Below are positions 18,780 to 25,010 of a DNA stretch of 64,000 nucleotides, in pieces. Origin of the DNA: a virus; the IMG/VR virus record IMGVR_UViG_3300046476_000353, positions 2,975 through 66,974 of that record; one strand, given 5' to 3'. The notes below the pieces were generated by a model. The model was not told the origin of the DNA, made no database searches, and saw nothing but the letters and a program-made list of their open reading frames with translations. Position numbers and translations under genes: made by a program. The number at the start of each line of letters is the position of its first letter. Positions within the stretch are counted from its first letter, which is position 1.

Positions 18780-20144
18780 CTACGCAGTCGTCGAGTCCGT
18801 GACCAGCCCGAGCGTCGCCAACGCAGTGATCAGCGACGCGAGAGCCGCATTCCCGCCACGCGACCCGGTGACCGTCGGCCGCCCCGTCGGCGTCGCCCCA
18901 AAGAACCCAGCGGTGTTGGCCGTGCCGTCGAGGACATGCTTCGTGGCCCCGTACAGCGCGTCGACATACTCGACCTTCCCCGCCACCTGGATGTTCTGCG
19001 CATCAGCCGACAGCCGCAGATAGCTGCGCTGCGTCCCGTTGAAACCGGACCCGGACCAGTTGGAGAGGATCAGGTCCGTGCCCGTCGCCTCAAGGTCCAG
19101 GGACGATCCGTCGACGCGGAACCGGTACCCCTTGGTGAAGTCGGTGACGGTGAGGTTGCCGCCGGAGACCTGCGCGGGCCCGGCGACGTTGAGGCCGGCG
19201 AGGAACGCGGTCCCTTGCTCGATGGCCGAGACGCGGGTGAGGCAGTCCTGGACGAAGCCGTCGAGGTCGGTGACAGCACCGCCGAGGGTGGTGACGGTGC
19301 TGTTCGTCGTGCCGAGCGCTGTGAGTGTCGCGAACTTGTTGTCCGCGTAGGCCCGGTCGCCGTGCGAGTCGGTACCGCCCGCGTGGGCGCTCACCTTGCT
19401 GGCGGCGCCGCTCTGTGTCTCCAGCGCCGTGGTGTCGGCGATCCCGTGCACCGAGGTGGTGCTCGCGCTGTGTGTGCTCACCTTGCTGGTCGCATCCGAT
19501 GCCGCAGCACTGATCGCGGCAGCCTGCGCCGCATTCGCCTTCGTCGTCGCGTCAGACGCAGCCGTGCTGATCGCAGTCGACTGTGCAGCCCCCGCCTTAC
19601 TCGTCGCATCCGCGGCCGCCGTACTGATGGCCGCAGCCTGCGCCGAAGCTGCAGCGCCAGCCGCGTCGAACAGGGCAACGCTGCCGGCCGACAGGGTCGG
19701 GTCCGGGTACGTCCCAGCGAGTGCGCCGCCCGCGGGGCCAGTTGGCCCGGACGCTCCGCCATCCGCGCCCTGTGGCCCGCGGGGTCCGATGACGACGACG
19801 TAGTCGGTAGGGAGCGGCTCGACCTCCAGCACCGTCCCGAGGCTGACGTTCCCCGCAGAGGCGGGCAGGCTGATGTTGCGGGAGATCGGCGGCTGCCCGG
19901 TCAACGCCAGGTCCATCCGCCAGATGAACGGCTCGTCGAGGGCGTCGGTGGCGACGAGGGACACGTGAAGCCCGGACGCGCCGATGGTTGCGTTCTCCGG
20001 GCCGAGGTAGATGCCGCCCGGGTCGACCAGCACCGGCGGGACGGGCGTAAAGACGGCCGCGCCCTGCCGATCCGTGCCGTCCGGGGAGAGGGGCGGGAAC
20101 ACCGCGGTGAGCGTGACCGTGGCCACACCATCAGGCAGAGGCAT
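18780..20144 (-). CDS. Fibre/minor virion protein
   Basis: Beta-rich N-terminus, short collagen motif GPRGPQG, repeated AAISTAAxDATxKA, beta-rich C-terminus. Confidence 0.65.
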   Translation of the reverse strand: MPLPDGVATVTLTAVFPPLSPDGTDRQGAAVFTPVPPVLVDPGGIYLGPENATIGASGLHVSLVATDALDEPFIWRMDLALTGQPPISRNISLPASAGNVSLGTVLEVEPLPTDYVVVIGPRGPQGADGGASGPTGPAGGALAGTYPDPTLSAGSVALFDAAGAAASAQAAAISTAAADATSKAGAAQSTAISTAASDATTKANAAQAAAISAAASDATSKVSTHSASTTSVHGIADTTALETQSGAASKVSAHAGGTDSHGDRAYADNKFATLTALGTTNSTVTTLGGAVTDLDGFVQDCLTRVSAIEQGTAFLAGLNVAGPAQVSGGNLTVTDFTKGYRFRVDGSSLDLEATGTDLILSNWSGSGFNGTQRSYLRLSADAQNIQVAGKVEYVDALYGATKHVLDGTANTAGFFGATPTGRPTVTGSRGGNAALASLITALATLGLVTDSTTA

Positions 20145-20146
20145 CG

Positions 20147-20506
20147 TCAGACTCCAGTCCGGTTGTACTCGTCAACCCGCTCAGGCGGTGACGGCGGATC
20201 GATTCCATGGCCGCGCATCTGCGTCGTCAGCTCCCCGACGTACCCCGCGAACGCCCGGACCAGCGACCGCAGCGACCGGACTTCCTCCCTCGTCGCCGTC
20301 AGGTCAGCCCGCAACTCCGTCTTGATCGCCTCAAAAGCAGCCCGATCCTCAGCCCGCTGGTTCGGCTCGACCTGCACCCGCGCGGCCGCCCGCGTCGCCT
20401 CCGCCGTAGCCGCCGCCGCCCGCGTCGTCGCCCGCGCCGCGAACAATCCAGCCACCACCATGCCCACCGTGCCCAGCACGGCCACGATCCCCGCCCACAC
20501 ACTCAT
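20147..20506 (-). CDS. Lysis-cassette membrane/coiled-coil protein
   Basis: N-terminal TM helix followed by a coiled coil. Confidence 0.65.
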   Translation of the reverse strand: MSVWAGIVAVLGTVGMVVAGLFAARATTRAAAATAEATRAAARVQVEPNQRAEDRAAFEAIKTELRADLTATREEVRSLRSLVRAFAGYVGELTTQMRGHGIDPPSPPERVDEYNRTGV

Positions 20507-20949
20507 GGCGCCTTGCCTCTCCCCGCGGTTCTCGACAGGTGGGGGACCGAATGCTCAGGAACGGTGGCCGCCCACAGGATGACCCCGACATGCGAGGCCA
20601 GGTACCAGATGGCGACGAACCCGCCGCGGGGGAAGGTGCCGTCGATGACCGCCGTCAGGTAGGCGGTCGCCCAGACCGTGGGAGGGATGAGCGCGACCGC
20701 GAAGCCGACGCCGTCACGGCCCACCCGCAGGAACGCGCAGAAGACCGTGATGAGCCCGGCGAGAATCCACAGCCACGCCCAACAGCGCAGCGGCGCGTGG
20801 TCGGTGAGGAGTTCCAGGCCTTGTGGGTTCGGCTGGGGCGCGGCGATGAAGCCCACGCCCCAGCACGTCTTGCCGACGCCGAGGATCAGCAGGAACGTGC
20901 CGCGGCGGCCCAGGGCCTTATGGAACCGCCGGACCGCGCGGCACTGCAC
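20503..20949 (-). CDS. Lysis-cassette four-TM membrane protein
   Basis: Four hydrophobic helices; immediately downstream of the holin. Confidence 0.7.
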   Translation of the reverse strand: MQCRAVRRFHKALGRRGTFLLILGVGKTCWGVGFIAAPQPNPQGLELLTDHAPLRCWAWLWILAGLITVFCAFLRVGRDGVGFAVALIPPTVWATAYLTAVIDGTFPRGGFVAIWYLASHVGVILWAATVPEHSVPHLSRTAGRGKAP

Positions 20950-21258
20950 TCAGGCCGCCTTGACGAGCGAGTCCTGAGCCTTACCGGAGACGCCGACCGG
21001 CTTCCAGAAGCCGAAGTGCGCGAGGACAGCGCTGGCGAAGCTGACGAGCGCCAACACGGCGGCGGTACCGACGGAGTAGCCGGCGTCGTGCGGGCCGGCG
21101 TACTCGGTCATGAACCCGGTCGCGGTGCTGAGCGCGAGCAGAAGCACCGCCTTGATGCCAGCGTCCGTGACTCTCGTGGTGACGAGTCCGACGAGGACGG
21201 GCAGGACGACGGAGACGAGCAGGCCGAGCCAGTAGGCGGAGTCGAGGGTGACGGTCAT
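20950..21258 (-). CDS. Holin
   Basis: Three TM helices in 102 aa, directly after the endolysin. Confidence 0.75.
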   Translation of the reverse strand: MTVTLDSAYWLGLLVSVVLPVLVGLVTTRVTDAGIKAVLLLALSTATGFMTEYAGPHDAGYSVGTAAVLALVSFASAVLAHFGFWKPVGVSGKAQDSLVKAA

Positions 21259-21279
21259 GACGGGGTTCCTTCCAGAGGG

Positions 21280-22143
21280 TCAGACGTTGGGGACGTGGAG
21301 CCGGGACCAGCTGGACGGGCCCGGGATCCCGTCGGCGGCCGTGCCCGTGTAGCCGAGCTTCCGCTGCCAGGCCGCGTAGCTGCGCTCGTCGCCCGAGCCC
21401 CACACGTCGGCGTTCGCAGCCGAGGCGTAGTGGTTGCAGCCGACAGCCACCAGCCGCTTGTGCATCGCAGCAATCACCGGCGACCGGCGGCCTGTTCGGA
21501 AGAACGCGGCACCCGGGAACGGCTCGTCGACCGGCTTCTGCACCGGCTTCGGCGGGGCAAGGAACGCGGGCCAGGAACCCGGGTCGACGTGCGTGTTCTC
21601 CGGCGTCTCACCGTGCCCGTACCAGCCGCCCTCGGTCTCCCACACATGCTCACTGCGGTGCGGAGAGAAGTCCGTCGGACGACCCATCGGCCACGCCTGC
21701 GGAACACCCCACGACGTCACCCAGTCCTGCAGCGCCTGCCAGCCCTTGCAGGGCGTGTCCTCAAGCTGCGCGTACACCTTGCCGTCCGGGGCCTTGCAGT
21801 ACGGGAAGAACAGCGCCTCGATCTGCAGAACCACCTTCCCGGCCCGGTTCGTTCGGGTCCCGCCAGCGAGGTCGACGACGCTCTTGCTACGGGAGTCGGC
21901 CGGGTAGAACTGTGCGAACCGGCCGCCGAACGGATCCCAGAGGATGTGCGGGGCGACGCCAATCCCGCTGCCGGTGAAGTAGCCGAGGAGGTCGGCGAAC
22001 GGGACGAGGGCCTGCGGCTTGGCCGCGGTGGCGTTGCGATCCCACGTGATGTGAGCGATTGCCTTGGCCGGGTACTGCGTGTCGCACGGGGCGTGGTCCC
22101 CGACGTCGGACCGTATCGCCCCAGGCATCCAGAGATCGGCCAT
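21280..22143 (-). CDS. Endolysin: amidase with C-terminal peptidoglycan-binding domain
   Basis: AHIT, PHILWDP, QIE, GH...PENTHVDPG; AWQRKLG...ADGIPGPSSW. Confidence 0.85.
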   Translation of the reverse strand: MADLWMPGAIRSDVGDHAPCDTQYPAKAIAHITWDRNATAAKPQALVPFADLLGYFTGSGIGVAPHILWDPFGGRFAQFYPADSRSKSVVDLAGGTRTNRAGKVVLQIEALFFPYCKAPDGKVYAQLEDTPCKGWQALQDWVTSWGVPQAWPMGRPTDFSPHRSEHVWETEGGWYGHGETPENTHVDPGSWPAFLAPPKPVQKPVDEPFPGAAFFRTGRRSPVIAAMHKRLVAVGCNHYASAANADVWGSGDERSYAAWQRKLGYTGTAADGIPGPSSWSRLHVPNV

Positions 22144-22145
22144 GG

Positions 22146-23045
22146 TCAGGCTCCCGTCACGTGGTTGTCGTGCGCCCACGCCTGCATCAGAGCCACGACC
22201 TGAACCAGTCGAGGATCCGCAGCAGGAGTGGGCGACGGAGGAGGGGACGGCACCGGACCGGGCCGAGGGACCGGGTTGGCCTCACCGGTCAGCTCCGCGA
22301 ACTGCTCGCCGAGCGCGTAGAAGCTGGGCGCGCCGGTGAAGTAGACGCCCGCGGCTTTCATGCCGTCCGCGTCGAGGGCGACCCACGCTTCGTCGACGTA
22401 GCGCGTCCAGAACCGCCACGTCATCTTCGTCTCGGCGCCCCAGGTGACGATGCCGACGCCGTCCTCGGCGTAGGCGCCGGCGAGGACGCAGTGGCCGCCT
22501 TCGTTCTTGGCGCCGCGGACGACGTCCCAGGGCTGGCCTGCGTTGAACTGCCGCATGGCGGAGTCGGGGAACTGCAGGCCGATACTGACGCTGCCGAACA
22601 GTGCGATCGCCTGGCGGACCTCGACGAGGTTGGCAACATCGAGCGAGGCGTAAGCCACGATCTTGTGCCCGGCGATCCCGGTGGTGCGCCAGTACTTGAG
22701 GGCGTCCTGCACGTAGGTGCCCTGGTCGGTGGGGTTGTTGCCGGGCGGGCCCGCGTTGGGGTCGAAGCCGGTGACGGCGGAGTAGCCCTTGAGGATGTCC
22801 TGGTCGGTGGGCGTGACCTCGGCTCCGGTGGCGTAGTACGTCAGCTGGTTGATCGCGTGGCCGACCTCGGCCCATACGCAATCGCCCCAGTCCGCGTTGC
22901 CGTACATCGGCCAGCGGATGGCGTTGTCCTGCCAGTCCATTGAGGGCGGCGGGGAGGTGAGGCGTTCCCGGAGGACGGGCGACAACCGAAGGTGGGGGCG
23001 TGCGGGTTGGGCGGGGAGTTTCCCGAGCGGGTGGTGTGCGGTCAT
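22146..23045 (-). CDS. Papain-like cysteine peptidase at the head of the lysis cassette
   Basis: N..GDCVWA, GGHCV, IVTWG. Confidence 0.7.
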   Translation of the reverse strand: MTAHHPLGKLPAQPARPHLRLSPVLRERLTSPPPSMDWQDNAIRWPMYGNADWGDCVWAEVGHAINQLTYYATGAEVTPTDQDILKGYSAVTGFDPNAGPPGNNPTDQGTYVQDALKYWRTTGIAGHKIVAYASLDVANLVEVRQAIALFGSVSIGLQFPDSAMRQFNAGQPWDVVRGAKNEGGHCVLAGAYAEDGVGIVTWGAETKMTWRFWTRYVDEAWVALDADGMKAAGVYFTGAPSFYALGEQFAELTGEANPVPRPGPVPSPPPSPTPAADPRLVQVVALMQAWAHDNHVTGA

Positions 23046-23218
23046 GCGGGCCCTCCCACAGATAGCGTCACCTACGAATCGTAGCCTGTGGGCCCTATTC
23101 GACCTACGGATCTAAGGTACGGTTCTATCGGCCCCTTGCTCAGAGGCCGGTGGCAGGGGAGTTCCTTTGCGGGTTGACCCCTGCCACCACAACCCGCAAC
23201 CAACCCGCAGGAGTGCGC

Positions 23219-23827
23219 ATGAGCGACTTCAACCTTCGCCACCTCGTCAGGGGCGTCCTCGCGTCAAGCGAGTTGACCGACCCTCACGCGCTGGCGGACG
23301 AGATCCTCGACCGGATCGACGACGCAGACCTACGCCCCGCGCTGGGTCAGGTATTGGCGAGCATGGTCCGCGAGGAGATCCGTGAACGCCGCAACCGGCA
23401 CTCCCTCGCCTTGCCCGCACCGGCCGTTCGCAGGACGCCGCCTGTCACCTCAGCGCCCCGCCTCACGCTGCACACGCAGTCGGAGGTGATGACCGAGTCA
23501 CCCGGTCCCGTGCCGCGCCCGATGGTCAAGCCCACTCCTCGGCCCGCCCGGTCGGCGAAGGTCGCAGCGATCCGTGCCGCCGCCCCGAAGTGGCTGGAGG
23601 ACCGCTACTGCGTGGGCGGCGGGGACGACGACTGGAAGTTCCTCGGCGACTGCGGATTCACCGACTTGATGTTCGCGGCCGGGCAGCGACGGGAGCAGGC
23701 GGCCCGCACGTCGGCGGTCGCGGAGCGGCTGGAGGGTCTGGCCGAACTCGTGCGCACGCACGGCGTGAAGCGAGTGCGTGATCTGCCCGCCTCGGTTCTC
23801 GACTCTGTTGGGGGTGCGGCGGCGTGA
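23219..23827 (+). CDS. Hypothetical protein, translationally coupled to the TasA-like gene
   Basis: AGGAG RBS; its stop overlaps the next start (GTGA); C-terminal WKFLGDC..DL...GVKRVRDL domain. Confidence 0.75.
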   Translation: MSDFNLRHLVRGVLASSELTDPHALADEILDRIDDADLRPALGQVLASMVREEIRERRNRHSLALPAPAVRRTPPVTSAPRLTLHTQSEVMTESPGPVPRPMVKPTPRPARSAKVAAIRAAAPKWLEDRYCVGGGDDDWKFLGDCGFTDLMFAAGQRREQAARTSAVAERLEGLAELVRTHGVKRVRDLPASVLDSVGGAAA

Positions 23828-24870
23828 CGTACCTCGACCCCAAGACTGGCGCCAGCGGCGGCCATATGAATCGCGAGGCCCAGTGGCCTAACGCTGCTGC
23901 TGGTGCCGCAGACTTCCCCGACGGCCAGAGGATCAGCGAGACCCATCACGTTCCCGCCGTCGGGGAGCACAACCCGCCAACACCGGCCATGCCACGAACG
24001 GCCGCCAATGAAGAGCCGCCGGTGCTGGCGTCCAACCCGTGGGCCGACTCCAACGCCCCGCTCCTCGCGCTCCTCGCCGACGTCCTCGACGACCTTGAGC
24101 GCACCCGCATCGCCAACGAAAACCGACTCCGCCAACTCACCCGCACCGAGACCGACTCGGACGGTGAAGAGCGCGGGTTCGGCCTCACCCTCGACCAGCC
24201 CCAGGTAGCCGCGCTCGCGGACGTGGTGGCAGCCCTCGGCAAGCTGGAGCACCAGTCCACCCTCAACCTCCAGCGTGCAGTGCGGAAACACCCGCTCGGC
24301 CCGTGGGTGAAAGCCACCATCGGCGTCGGCGAGAAACAAGGCGCCCGACTCCTCGCCGCCATCGGTGACCCCTACTGGAACACCCTCCATAACCGGCCGC
24401 GTCTCGTCTCCGAACTGTGGGCGTACTGCGGCCTCCACGTACTCCCCGCCGCCCACAGATCGGACGAAGCCCAAGGTCGTAGCGGCAGCGGGGGCAAGCA
24501 GGGCGACCCCGGCCATAACACCGGCGCACTCCAGGCCCCCGCCGTCGGGGTCGCCCCTACCCGTGCGCGAGGTCAGCGCGCCAACTGGTCCACCACAGCC
24601 AAGACCCGCGCCTACCTCGTCGCCGAATCCTGCATCAAGCAGGCCCGGTCCCCATACCGCGCGGTCTACGACGACGGCCGCAAGAAGTACACCGAAGCCG
24701 TCCACGTCGCACCCTGCCGCCGCTGTGGCCCCTCTGGGAAACCAGCCGCCGAAGGCACCCAGCTCAGTGCCGGACACCAGCACGCCCGCGCCATGCGCCT
24801 CGTCATGAAGGCCGTCCTCAAAGACCTCTGGCTGGAGTCCAAGCGCATCCACGAGGAAGGCCAGCCATGA
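23824..24870 (+). CDS. TasA-like RNA-binding protein (IS110 C-terminal/Nop fold, no nuclease domain)
   Basis: Coiled coil DLERTRIANENRLR; IGVGEKQGARLLAAIGD; SELWAYCGL; GQRANW; YRAVYD..K.Y; HQHARAMR..KAVL.DLW. No DEDD RuvC or HNH motif. Confidence 0.8.
   Translation: MTYLDPKTGASGGHMNREAQWPNAAAGAADFPDGQRISETHHVPAVGEHNPPTPAMPRTAANEEPPVLASNPWADSNAPLLALLADVLDDLERTRIANENRLRQLTRTETDSDGEERGFGLTLDQPQVAALADVVAALGKLEHQSTLNLQRAVRKHPLGPWVKATIGVGEKQGARLLAAIGDPYWNTLHNRPRLVSELWAYCGLHVLPAAHRSDEAQGRSGSGGKQGDPGHNTGALQAPAVGVAPTRARGQRANWSTTAKTRAYLVAESCIKQARSPYRAVYDDGRKKYTEAVHVAPCRRCGPSGKPAAEGTQLSAGHQHARAMRLVMKAVLKDLWLESKRIHEEGQP
23848..24030 (+). ncRNA. Stem-loop TIGR-like guide array, units 1-3
   Basis: Three units at 62-63 nt spacing: 11-15 bp stem, CA, N9, CGnnnnCCA, N9, C, stem. 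Spacers are tatgaatcg/gtggcctaa, gaggatcag/tcacgttcc and tgccacgaa/atgaagagc. Confidence 0.85.
24443..24556 (+). ncRNA. Stem-loop TIGR-like guide array, units 4-5 (inside the Nop domain)
   Basis: Same architecture at 60 nt spacing. Spacers are cagatcgga/aggtcgtag and taacaccgg/ggcccccgc; loops are CGAAGCCCA and CGCACTCCA. Confidence 0.85.
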
Positions 24871-25010
24871 CCGACCCCACCCCCTACGACAACGGCGGCG
24901 TGCTCCGCCCCGGCCTCGTCATCACCACGCTCAAGCCCGGCGAACGCGTCCTCACGCGAGCCGACCTCCAGCGGCTGCGCTCGATGAGCGAACCGGAGGA
25001 CGAGTCGTGA
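24867..25010 (+). CDS. 47-aa protein resembling the tape-measure C-terminal motif
   Basis: Hand translation: MTDPTPYDNGGVLRPGLVITTLKPGERVLTRADLQRL...; ATGA overlap with the upstream gene. Confidence 0.6.
   Translation: MTDPTPYDNGGVLRPGLVITTLKPGERVLTRADLQRLRSMSEPEDES

Follow-up and report, generated by a model that had tools for sequence, protein, structure and literature searches.

A Match between a Putative TIGR-TasA Guide and a Lysis-Cassette Gene in the Genome of the Same Rhizosphere Phage

In the accounts of Faure 2025 (PMC12045711) and Xu 2026 (preprint, 10.64898/2026.09.09.750476), the natural targets and the native role of TIGR-Tas systems are stated to be undetermined, and two reasons are given there: most loci are found on fragmentary metagenomic contigs, and guides of 18 nt produce many false matches in large databases. 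The phage locus described here raises the question of whether one of its guides has a target in the genome that carries it. The search space is in this case one complete 67-kb genome, in which a single rule-abiding match is rare enough to merit a bench test. The source is a single virus record of 66,974 bp with 69% G+C; the window analyzed is the 64,000-nt stretch corresponding to bases 2975–66974 of that record, and coordinates below are those of the window. In a public run search the phage record was seen solely in rhizosphere metagenome DNA runs, with no RNA run among them. A published catalogue comprises 20,096 tas loci (sources on the family used here: Faure 2025, Xu 2026, Guan 2026 and 10.64898/2026.07.30.739390), and this locus may already be included in it. 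In the parts of the TIGR-Tas and tigRNA literature covered by our search, we found no report of a TasA with a natural target or with a target in its own genome.

The Tas locus and its stem-loop units

The following features were found in the rightward gene string of the locus:

23150–23827, plus strand: conserved partner gene (phrog_4604) of no assigned function, directly upstream of the array and tas
23824–24870, plus strand: tasA reading frame (phrog_4285, labelled 'transposase', E 6e-98), start GTG 23824 or ATG 23989
23849–23906, plus strand: tigRNA unit 1 (core 23862–23893), 15 closing pairs, z −3.6
23915–23966, plus strand: tigRNA unit 2, referred to as guide 2 (core 23925–23956), 11-bp closing stem, z −4.2
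23976–24029, plus strand: tigRNA unit 3 (core 23987–24018), 6 contiguous closing pairs, overlapping ATG 23989
24441–24496, plus strand: tigRNA unit 4 (core 24453–24484), in the tas frame, weakest stem, z −1.3
24498–24559, plus strand: tigRNA unit 5 (core 24513–24544), in the tas frame, 12-bp stem

A stem-loop TIGR unit has been described as a CCA box C, a 9-nt spacer and a CG or TG box D, with no more than 15 bp separating two intervals of this kind and with a stem (Faure 2025; Xu 2026), and the architecture of this array equals the published TIGRFinder definition. The pattern CCA-N9-CG-N4-CCA-N9-CG, which has a 4-nt loop, gave seven matches, all on the plus strand at 23862–24790 and none elsewhere in the window. 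Flanking palindromes close five of the seven, and these five are units 1–5, which occupy 23849–24559 upstream of and inside the tas gene. Unit 2 reads CCA-GAGGATCAG-CG-AGAC-CCA-TCACGTTCC-CG at 23925–23956, and none of 200 shuffles folded as stably. The stem of unit 4 is interrupted, with 8/9 positions paired by our reading of the fold. Judged by pattern and closing stems, the five units are taken to be a genuine stem-loop TIGR array.

The other two pattern matches were rejected as guides. The match at 24435 has no closing stem, overlaps unit 4 and has conserved HVLP codons as its first 'spacer', and the match at 24759 has no closing stem and a z of +0.5. The interval 24435–24448, a box C-N9-box D interval just before unit 4, is found with its HVLP-codon 'spacer' kept in the related loci L001, L004, L006, L192, and L207, in contrast to true spacers; it may belong to the stem, or it may be a fixed module bordering the intragenic insertion.

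By sequence and predicted fold, the adjacent protein is considered to be a Tas homologue with a Nop-type RNA-binding domain. A phmmer search against the PDB retrieved 9mty_A (TaTasR, TIGR-TasR) with E 4.9e-8 and the TasH chain 21kl_A with E 2.5e-6. An AlphaFold (AF2) model made with 23 homologues (pLDDT 82) gave Foldseek ranks 1–10 that were all TIGR-TasR and TasH, with E values of 1e-6 to 1e-5, and IS621 and Nop5 ranked next; a Pfam search of the Tas protein returned no domain. The alignment to TaTasR begins at TaTasR residue 142, past its N-terminal part. The model is almost all helix, and its DSSP string contains no beta-sheet RuvC-like or HNH-like fold. Since the model is nearly all-helical with no nuclease-like fold seen, the protein is assigned to a putative TasA type and not to TasR or TasH.

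The conserved part of Tas starts at about residue 9 of the 23989 form. If GTG 23824 is the tas start, units 1–3 would also be translated, as a non-conserved N-terminal extension. Units 4 and 5 map to Tas residues 154–190, a disordered segment that corresponds to a length-variable insertion, and several relatives are without this insertion. Five Tas residues (His239, Cys243, Cys246, His263, and His265) were invariant in 23 homologues. This segment, comprising residues 239–265 (window 24703–24786), was missing from TaTasR in a pairwise alignment, and it may be a clade-specific zinc-binding knuckle.

The stop of the partner gene overlaps GTG 23824 by 4 nt (GTGA, 23824–23827), as is the case for gp45/gp46 of the Gordonia phage LonelyBoi. 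Of the 24 IMG/VR loci, 18 have the partner gene, as do 12 of the 15 genome loci and nine of the ten cultured phages. Its protein was modelled as two helical domains with a disordered linker between them, and no PADLOC match and no Foldseek PDB match with E ≤0.001 was obtained for it (23213–23824). It may be an unrecognized TIGR-TasA accessory.

We regard 23150–24870 as a genuine stem-loop TIGR system of the putative TasA type, carried by an uncultured phage from the rhizosphere with Streptomycetaceae-like hosts; loading, dimerization, binding and repression are all taken over from published relatives. A nuclease-free Nop-domain TasA, presumably a dimer, would be loaded with hairpin guides of ~55 nt, each with two 9-nt spacers pairing with opposite DNA strands. 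The complex would bind without cutting, and such binding would result in repression of whatever the TasA complex occupies.

The guide 2 site and the published targeting rules

The site under study lies in a leftward string of lysis genes, which diverges from the rightward string containing tas; 3 kb separate site and array. The features concerned are:

20147–20506, minus strand: small membrane protein (ORF) in the leftward lysis string
20503–20949, minus strand: four-TM membrane protein gene containing the site (phrog_4026, E 2e-18; about four hydrophobic segments by hydropathy)
20881–20900, no strand assigned: candidate target of guide 2, the only match with ≤2 mismatches in the genome
20950–21258, minus strand: holin homologue (phrog_8269, E 1e-16)
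21280–22179, minus strand: endolysin homologue (phrog_17214, E 8e-74), upstream in the leftward string
22146–23045, minus strand: gene of no assigned function (phrog_19005) in the leftward lysis string

The plus strand at 20881–20900 reads GAGGATCAG-CA-GGAACGTGC. Compared to unit 2, this corresponds to spacer A (9/9), a 2-nt gap and the reverse complement of spacer B (8/9), which is the fit that had been reported in a preliminary description of this DNA and which can be read directly in the sequence. The sole mismatch is opposite base 1 of spacer B and thus at the outer edge, and the base after spacer A (C) is also matched. When the C 3′ of each spacer is included, a hand count gave 18/20 contiguous positions, in agreement with the count made earlier. 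At this candidate site, spacer A would pair with the minus (coding) strand and spacer B with the plus (template) strand. The description of the site as close to the 5′ end of a four-TM gene downstream of the holin was likewise borne out: it covers nt 50–69 of the four-TM ORF (codons 17–23, peptide GTFLLIL), and this ORF directly abuts the stop of the holin homologue. A scan of 20000–25000 with promoter and terminator consensus sequences gave 0 promoters and 0 terminators and thus offers no transcription-unit model.

The 9-mer of spacer A is present in four copies in the window (19065, 20881, and 23928 on the plus strand; 46590 on the minus strand) compared to an expectation of 0.61 by dinucleotide shuffling. 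Next to the remaining two copies outside the array, there was no match to spacer B.

For PlTasA, two 9-bp heteroduplexes on opposite strands within one continuously unwound region have been described, and at each unwinding junction lies the first guide nucleotide that is paired (Guan 2026, preprint, 10.64898/2026.08.11.744272), and cleavage by TaTasR leaves 3′ overhangs (Faure 2025). It follows from the unwinding-junction geometry and the 3′ overhangs that one strand of a target must read spacer A and then the reverse complement of spacer B (order A-rcB); this required order is our own derivation from the published geometry. TaTasR was reported to cut targets with 1- and 2-bp gaps like an ungapped target but not those with larger gaps, to tolerate edge mismatches, and to have its seed next to the fifth spacer base (Faure 2025). 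The guide 2 site shows the order A-rcB, a gap of 2 bp (0–2 bp being tolerated) and no seed mismatch. Since order, gap and edge-only mismatch all fit, 20881–20900 would count as a legal target by TaTasR rules, which were measured as cleavage by a dual-repeat TasR and not for a stem-loop TasA. The earlier concern that a 2-nt gap departs from a contiguous 18-bp target loses its force when judged by the 1–2 bp tolerance of TaTasR, the part of Faure 2025 in question being concerned with TaTasR and not with stem-loop TasA. TasA proteins have been described as RNA-guided repressors, and transcription was repressed when they were targeted within a gene (Xu 2026).

Frequency of the match in this genome and among relatives

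The complete genome of 66,974 bp was scanned on both strands with all five units, with gaps of −2 to +4 and in both orders. The guide 2 site was the sole match with ≤2 mismatches for any of the five units, and all others had ≥3, which agrees with the earlier impression by eye that units 3–5 had no comparable match. For the order rcB-A and for wrong orientations, nothing with <3 mismatches was found at gaps of −2 to +4 except for one match within the array; this combined the A half of unit 1 with the B half of unit 5 and was rejected as an artefact on GC-rich stem.

Shuffled spacers did not reach 17 of 18 positions equally often. With gaps of 0–4 and both orders, i.e., ten gap/order classes, ≤1 mismatch was obtained in 2/2000 shuffles of the unit-2 spacers and in 5/2000 when any unit was allowed. 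Decoys consisting of mispaired real spacer halves agreed with this (15/15,750 with ≤1 mismatch for the order A-rcB and gaps of 0–2; 5/4,900 in a second decoy run), as did real guides of other phages searched against this genome, none of which (0/493) gave a match with 1 mismatch and seven a match with 2. The chance of such a match for five guides in this genome is ~0.005. Since shuffles, decoys and foreign guides rarely reach ≤1 mismatch, the match exceeds the chance expectation for this one genome.

Tas homologues with a similar array were found at 24 IMG/VR loci, 15 bacterial genome loci and 55 metagenome loci and in ~90 GenBank actinophages, the latter mostly mycobacteriophages in which they are annotated as 'transposase' or 'DNA binding domain protein'. 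The closest bacterial genome loci were from two Kitasatospora (75–76%) and Streptomyces sp. NBC_01590 (74%). Of the distinct IMG/VR loci scanned, 21 of 23 have the array flanking or invading tas, and so do 14 of the 15 genome loci and all 10 cultured actinophages. Spacers in the surveyed array loci always differed, and those of the closest Tas relatives (86, 84, and 81% identity) were wholly different. Among 458 distinct units, no spacer column had any base at more than 39%, whereas box D showed 91–93% C followed by G, the CCA and the G of box D being fixed by the search pattern in this set; at least 8 contiguous closing pairs were present in 323 of these units. No unit-2-like guide was detected in any locus collected, and a search for the exact unit-2 core in IMG/VR gave 0 matches.

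In cultured relatives, tas is located in the early or immunity region: LonelyBoi has it after Cro, and in Bethlehem a superinfection immunity gene is nearby. Bethlehem gp71, SarFire gp72, LonelyBoi gp46, Spooky gp50, Omega gp21, and Rich gp50 are TasA homologues. The GenBank actinophage homologues, annotated as 'transposase', 'DNA binding domain protein' or 'hypothetical', have 2–10 flanking stem-loop units, and in LonelyBoi and Spooky the annotated CDS spans the array.

For a survey of self-matches, each guide was compared to the whole record from which it came; the set consisted of 21 IMG/VR viruses that bear Tas, together with 10 cultured actinophages. A strict pattern, which misses degenerate units, was used and several of the records are incomplete, so that this is a non-exhaustive survey. 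None of the 187 guides in these 31 other records showed a self-match with ≤1 mismatch. With ≤2 mismatches (order A-rcB, gap 0–2), two self-matches were found among 141 guides, including guide 2, compared to ~1.6 expected, and none was found among the 52 guides of the cultured phages. For all 192 guides in 32 records the decoy-based expectation was 0.105, which gives a probability of ~0.10 that one such match would be found somewhere. The family-level significance of the guide 2 match is thus weak. The earlier caution about chance stands: the figure is ~0.005 for five guides within this genome and ~0.10 across the family. As there was no recurrence in the 31 other records, self-targeting does not characterize this clade of actinophage Tas in general. 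An all-against-all comparison of 22 Tas-bearing records gave two matches compared to 1.45 expected, i.e., no excess of cross-targeting. When units 1 and 3–5 were searched against 2.75 Mb of related DNA, none had a match with ≤1 mismatch, the best being one of unit 5 with 2 mismatches.

The four-TM gene itself showed a different distribution from tas. A four-TM homologue was present in 1 of 20 Tas-bearing records checked (40% identity), the other 19 being without one, and the closest relative, L001, contains the holin (82%) and no detectable four-TM gene. In IMG/VR, 47 four-TM homologues were found at 56–76% identity, and the site represents the consensus of a conserved coding segment among them. 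An identical 20-mer was present in three other contigs and versions with 2 mismatches in three more. None of the relatives' sites matched guide 2 better than the phage's own, and the 2-nt spacing and the edge mismatch were kept in all. No Tas homologue was found in the five checked four-TM records with the site, including a 100%-complete 85-kb virus with an identical site. Array-like pairs seen in the four-TM loci L129 and L146 were overlapping matches within a gene with no stems and were judged to be due to chance. The commonness of the site can be read in two ways: a codon-biased hydrophobic string favors chance, and a gene family present in Tas-less rivals favors interference.

Readings of the match and related systems

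The reading that we prefer, at a probability of roughly 0.55, is that the guide 2 match is a coincidence between a hypervariable guide and the common, conserved TFLLIL codons of a transmembrane helix. The true targets of the array would then lie outside the sequences searched, in the host chromosome or other mobile elements. This reading is supported by the missing self-matches in the 31 other records, the family-wide chance of ~0.10 and cross-matches at the level of expectation. In addition, the closest relatives share no spacer and 19 of 20 Tas-bearing records do not contain the target gene. The A half of the spacer pair is over-frequent in the window, the site is a conserved coding consensus, and the other four guides have no match in the genome better than 3 mismatches. 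Against coincidence, the match is rare by every genome-level null, and it combines the order allowed by the geometry, a tolerated gap, a mismatch outside the published seed and a matched C after spacer A. The location would also fit, at 3 kb from the array and in genes where control of timing would make biological sense.

That the site is a functional target is given somewhat less than even odds. If so, dimeric TasA loaded with the unit-2 hairpin would be expected to unwind the 20 bp and to block RNA polymerase on its leftward course from the holin to the four-TM gene. We propose only tentatively, and with less confidence than in function as such, that guide 2 and its site are the first natural guide-target pair to be identified for a TIGR-TasA; a split-spacer guide would then place a non-cutting roadblock on a conserved 5′ segment of a membrane-protein gene of the lysis cassette, both in the phage itself and in those Tas-less relatives that share the gene. 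A non-cutting RNA-guided roadblock on lysis genes of this phage or its competitors had been put forward in the preliminary description. Of that proposal, the components were recovered (a genuine array by the above assignment, a Tas homologue with no nuclease domain detected, and a fitting order and gap). There was no sign of a conserved circuit: there were 0/187 self-matches, spacers differed, and the target gene was missing from 19 of 20 records.

Two versions of a functional site were considered. In the first, which we regard as unlikely, TasA with guide 2 bound to the phage's own 20881–20900 would regulate the phage itself by acting as a roadblock to leftward transcription. The endolysin and holin would still be transcribed, and the four-TM gene, 20147–20506 and 18780–20144 would be held back until levels of TasA or of the guide fall. 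Agreement of the site with the published target rules and its rarity by the genome-level nulls (~0.005 for five guides) argue for such regulation, as do the repression by TasA when targeted in a gene (Xu 2026) and the position of tas, which is in the early/immunity region of cultured relatives and here in a rightward string diverging from the lysis string. However, it finds no parallel among the self-matches of the 31 other records, the closest relatives have other spacers, and the closest of these bears the holin with no detectable four-TM homologue. Besides, the gap tolerance is borrowed from a dual-repeat cutting TasR, one mismatch remains where selection could have removed it, and no promoter or terminator consensus is available to anchor the model.

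The second version, which appears more doubtful still, is that guide 2 is aimed at a conserved segment of the four-TM gene in many Tas-less phages or prophages of the same hosts and would silence their lysis cassette in part; the phage's own copy would be collateral or tolerated. Suppression of competing mobile elements has been listed as a possible role (Faure 2025; Xu 2026), and the 47 four-TM homologues at 56–76% identity, the identical 20-mer in three other contigs with 2-mismatch sites in three more, and the finding of Tas in 0/5 checked records would be in line with this. But no relative's site is better than the phage's own copy, so that the phage would hit itself equally; moreover, none of the other four guides had a match with ≤1 mismatch in the 2.75 Mb of related DNA, and the 22 Tas-bearing records showed no excess of cross-targeting.

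It is highly improbable that the 'array' merely reflects coding periodicity or chance and that the match has no meaning. In favor of this reading, units 3–5 lie in an ORF (and units 1–2 as well if GTG 23824 is the start) and the pattern has extra matches without a closing stem at 24435 and 24759. Against it, the pattern is confined to the Tas locus and equals the TIGRFinder definition in architecture, the 458 units combine near-uniform spacer columns with conserved boxes and, in 323 cases, at least 8 contiguous closing pairs, and the intragenic units lie in a disordered, length-variable insertion which several relatives are without.

The closest likeness is to the stem-loop TasA systems, i.e., PlTasA (Faure 2025; Guan 2026) and MbTasA and BlTasA (Xu 2026), whose nuclease-free Nop-domain protein has a putative counterpart here. 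BlTasA, from Bifidobacterium longum, likewise has units upstream of tas and inside a disordered insertion (Xu 2026, 10.64898/2026.09.09.750476). DNA binding and transcription repression by TasA were shown in those papers and would be expected of the phage system. No natural target is reported in the sections of those papers relevant here, where such targets are said to be mostly beyond determination, whereas one guide of the phage finds a candidate target within the complete genome that encodes it. TaTasR resembles the guide 2 site in its opposite-strand adjacent pairing and its tolerance of 1–2 bp gaps and edge mismatches (Faure 2025, PMC12045711), but it is archaeal, dual-repeat and RuvC-bearing, and its rules are those of cleavage and not of stem-loop TasA binding. 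[quoted passage not shown] TIGR-Tas differs from these in an unrelated protein family, no PAM, a split two-strand guide and a total specificity of 18 nt. Box C/D snoRNPs and the IS110/IS621 bridge-RNA recombinases have in common with this Tas a Nop-type RNA-binding fold, dual guide segments and box C/D-like flanks, but this Tas has neither a methyltransferase partner nor a DEDD recombinase domain, nor does it have a target that is RNA.

Binding at the site would provide a first native target together with a biological role, either lysis control or inter-phage interference, and gapped targets would thereby be shown to be in natural use; controlling the timing of lysis, or the lysis of rivals, by RNA guides would then be a native TIGR function. 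Should there be no binding, the negative outcome for 192 guides surveyed against their own genomes still speaks against self-targeting as a general role in this clade.

Four rhizosphere runs were compared for co-variation of unit 2 and the site. In run X8, two versions of the array/tas region were found over 23909–24695, of which one was identical and the other 8% diverged (61 differences and 8 gaps in 787 nt). A contig of the lysis region from the same run (20400–21232) showed 4 differences in 833 nt. These contigs suggest a much higher rate of divergence or recombination in the array region than in the lysis cassette. In a Micropruina MAG, two contigs (L185 and L186) contained near-identical arrays with single-base substitutions within the spacers, which shows that spacers also drift by point mutation and do not change by wholesale replacement only.
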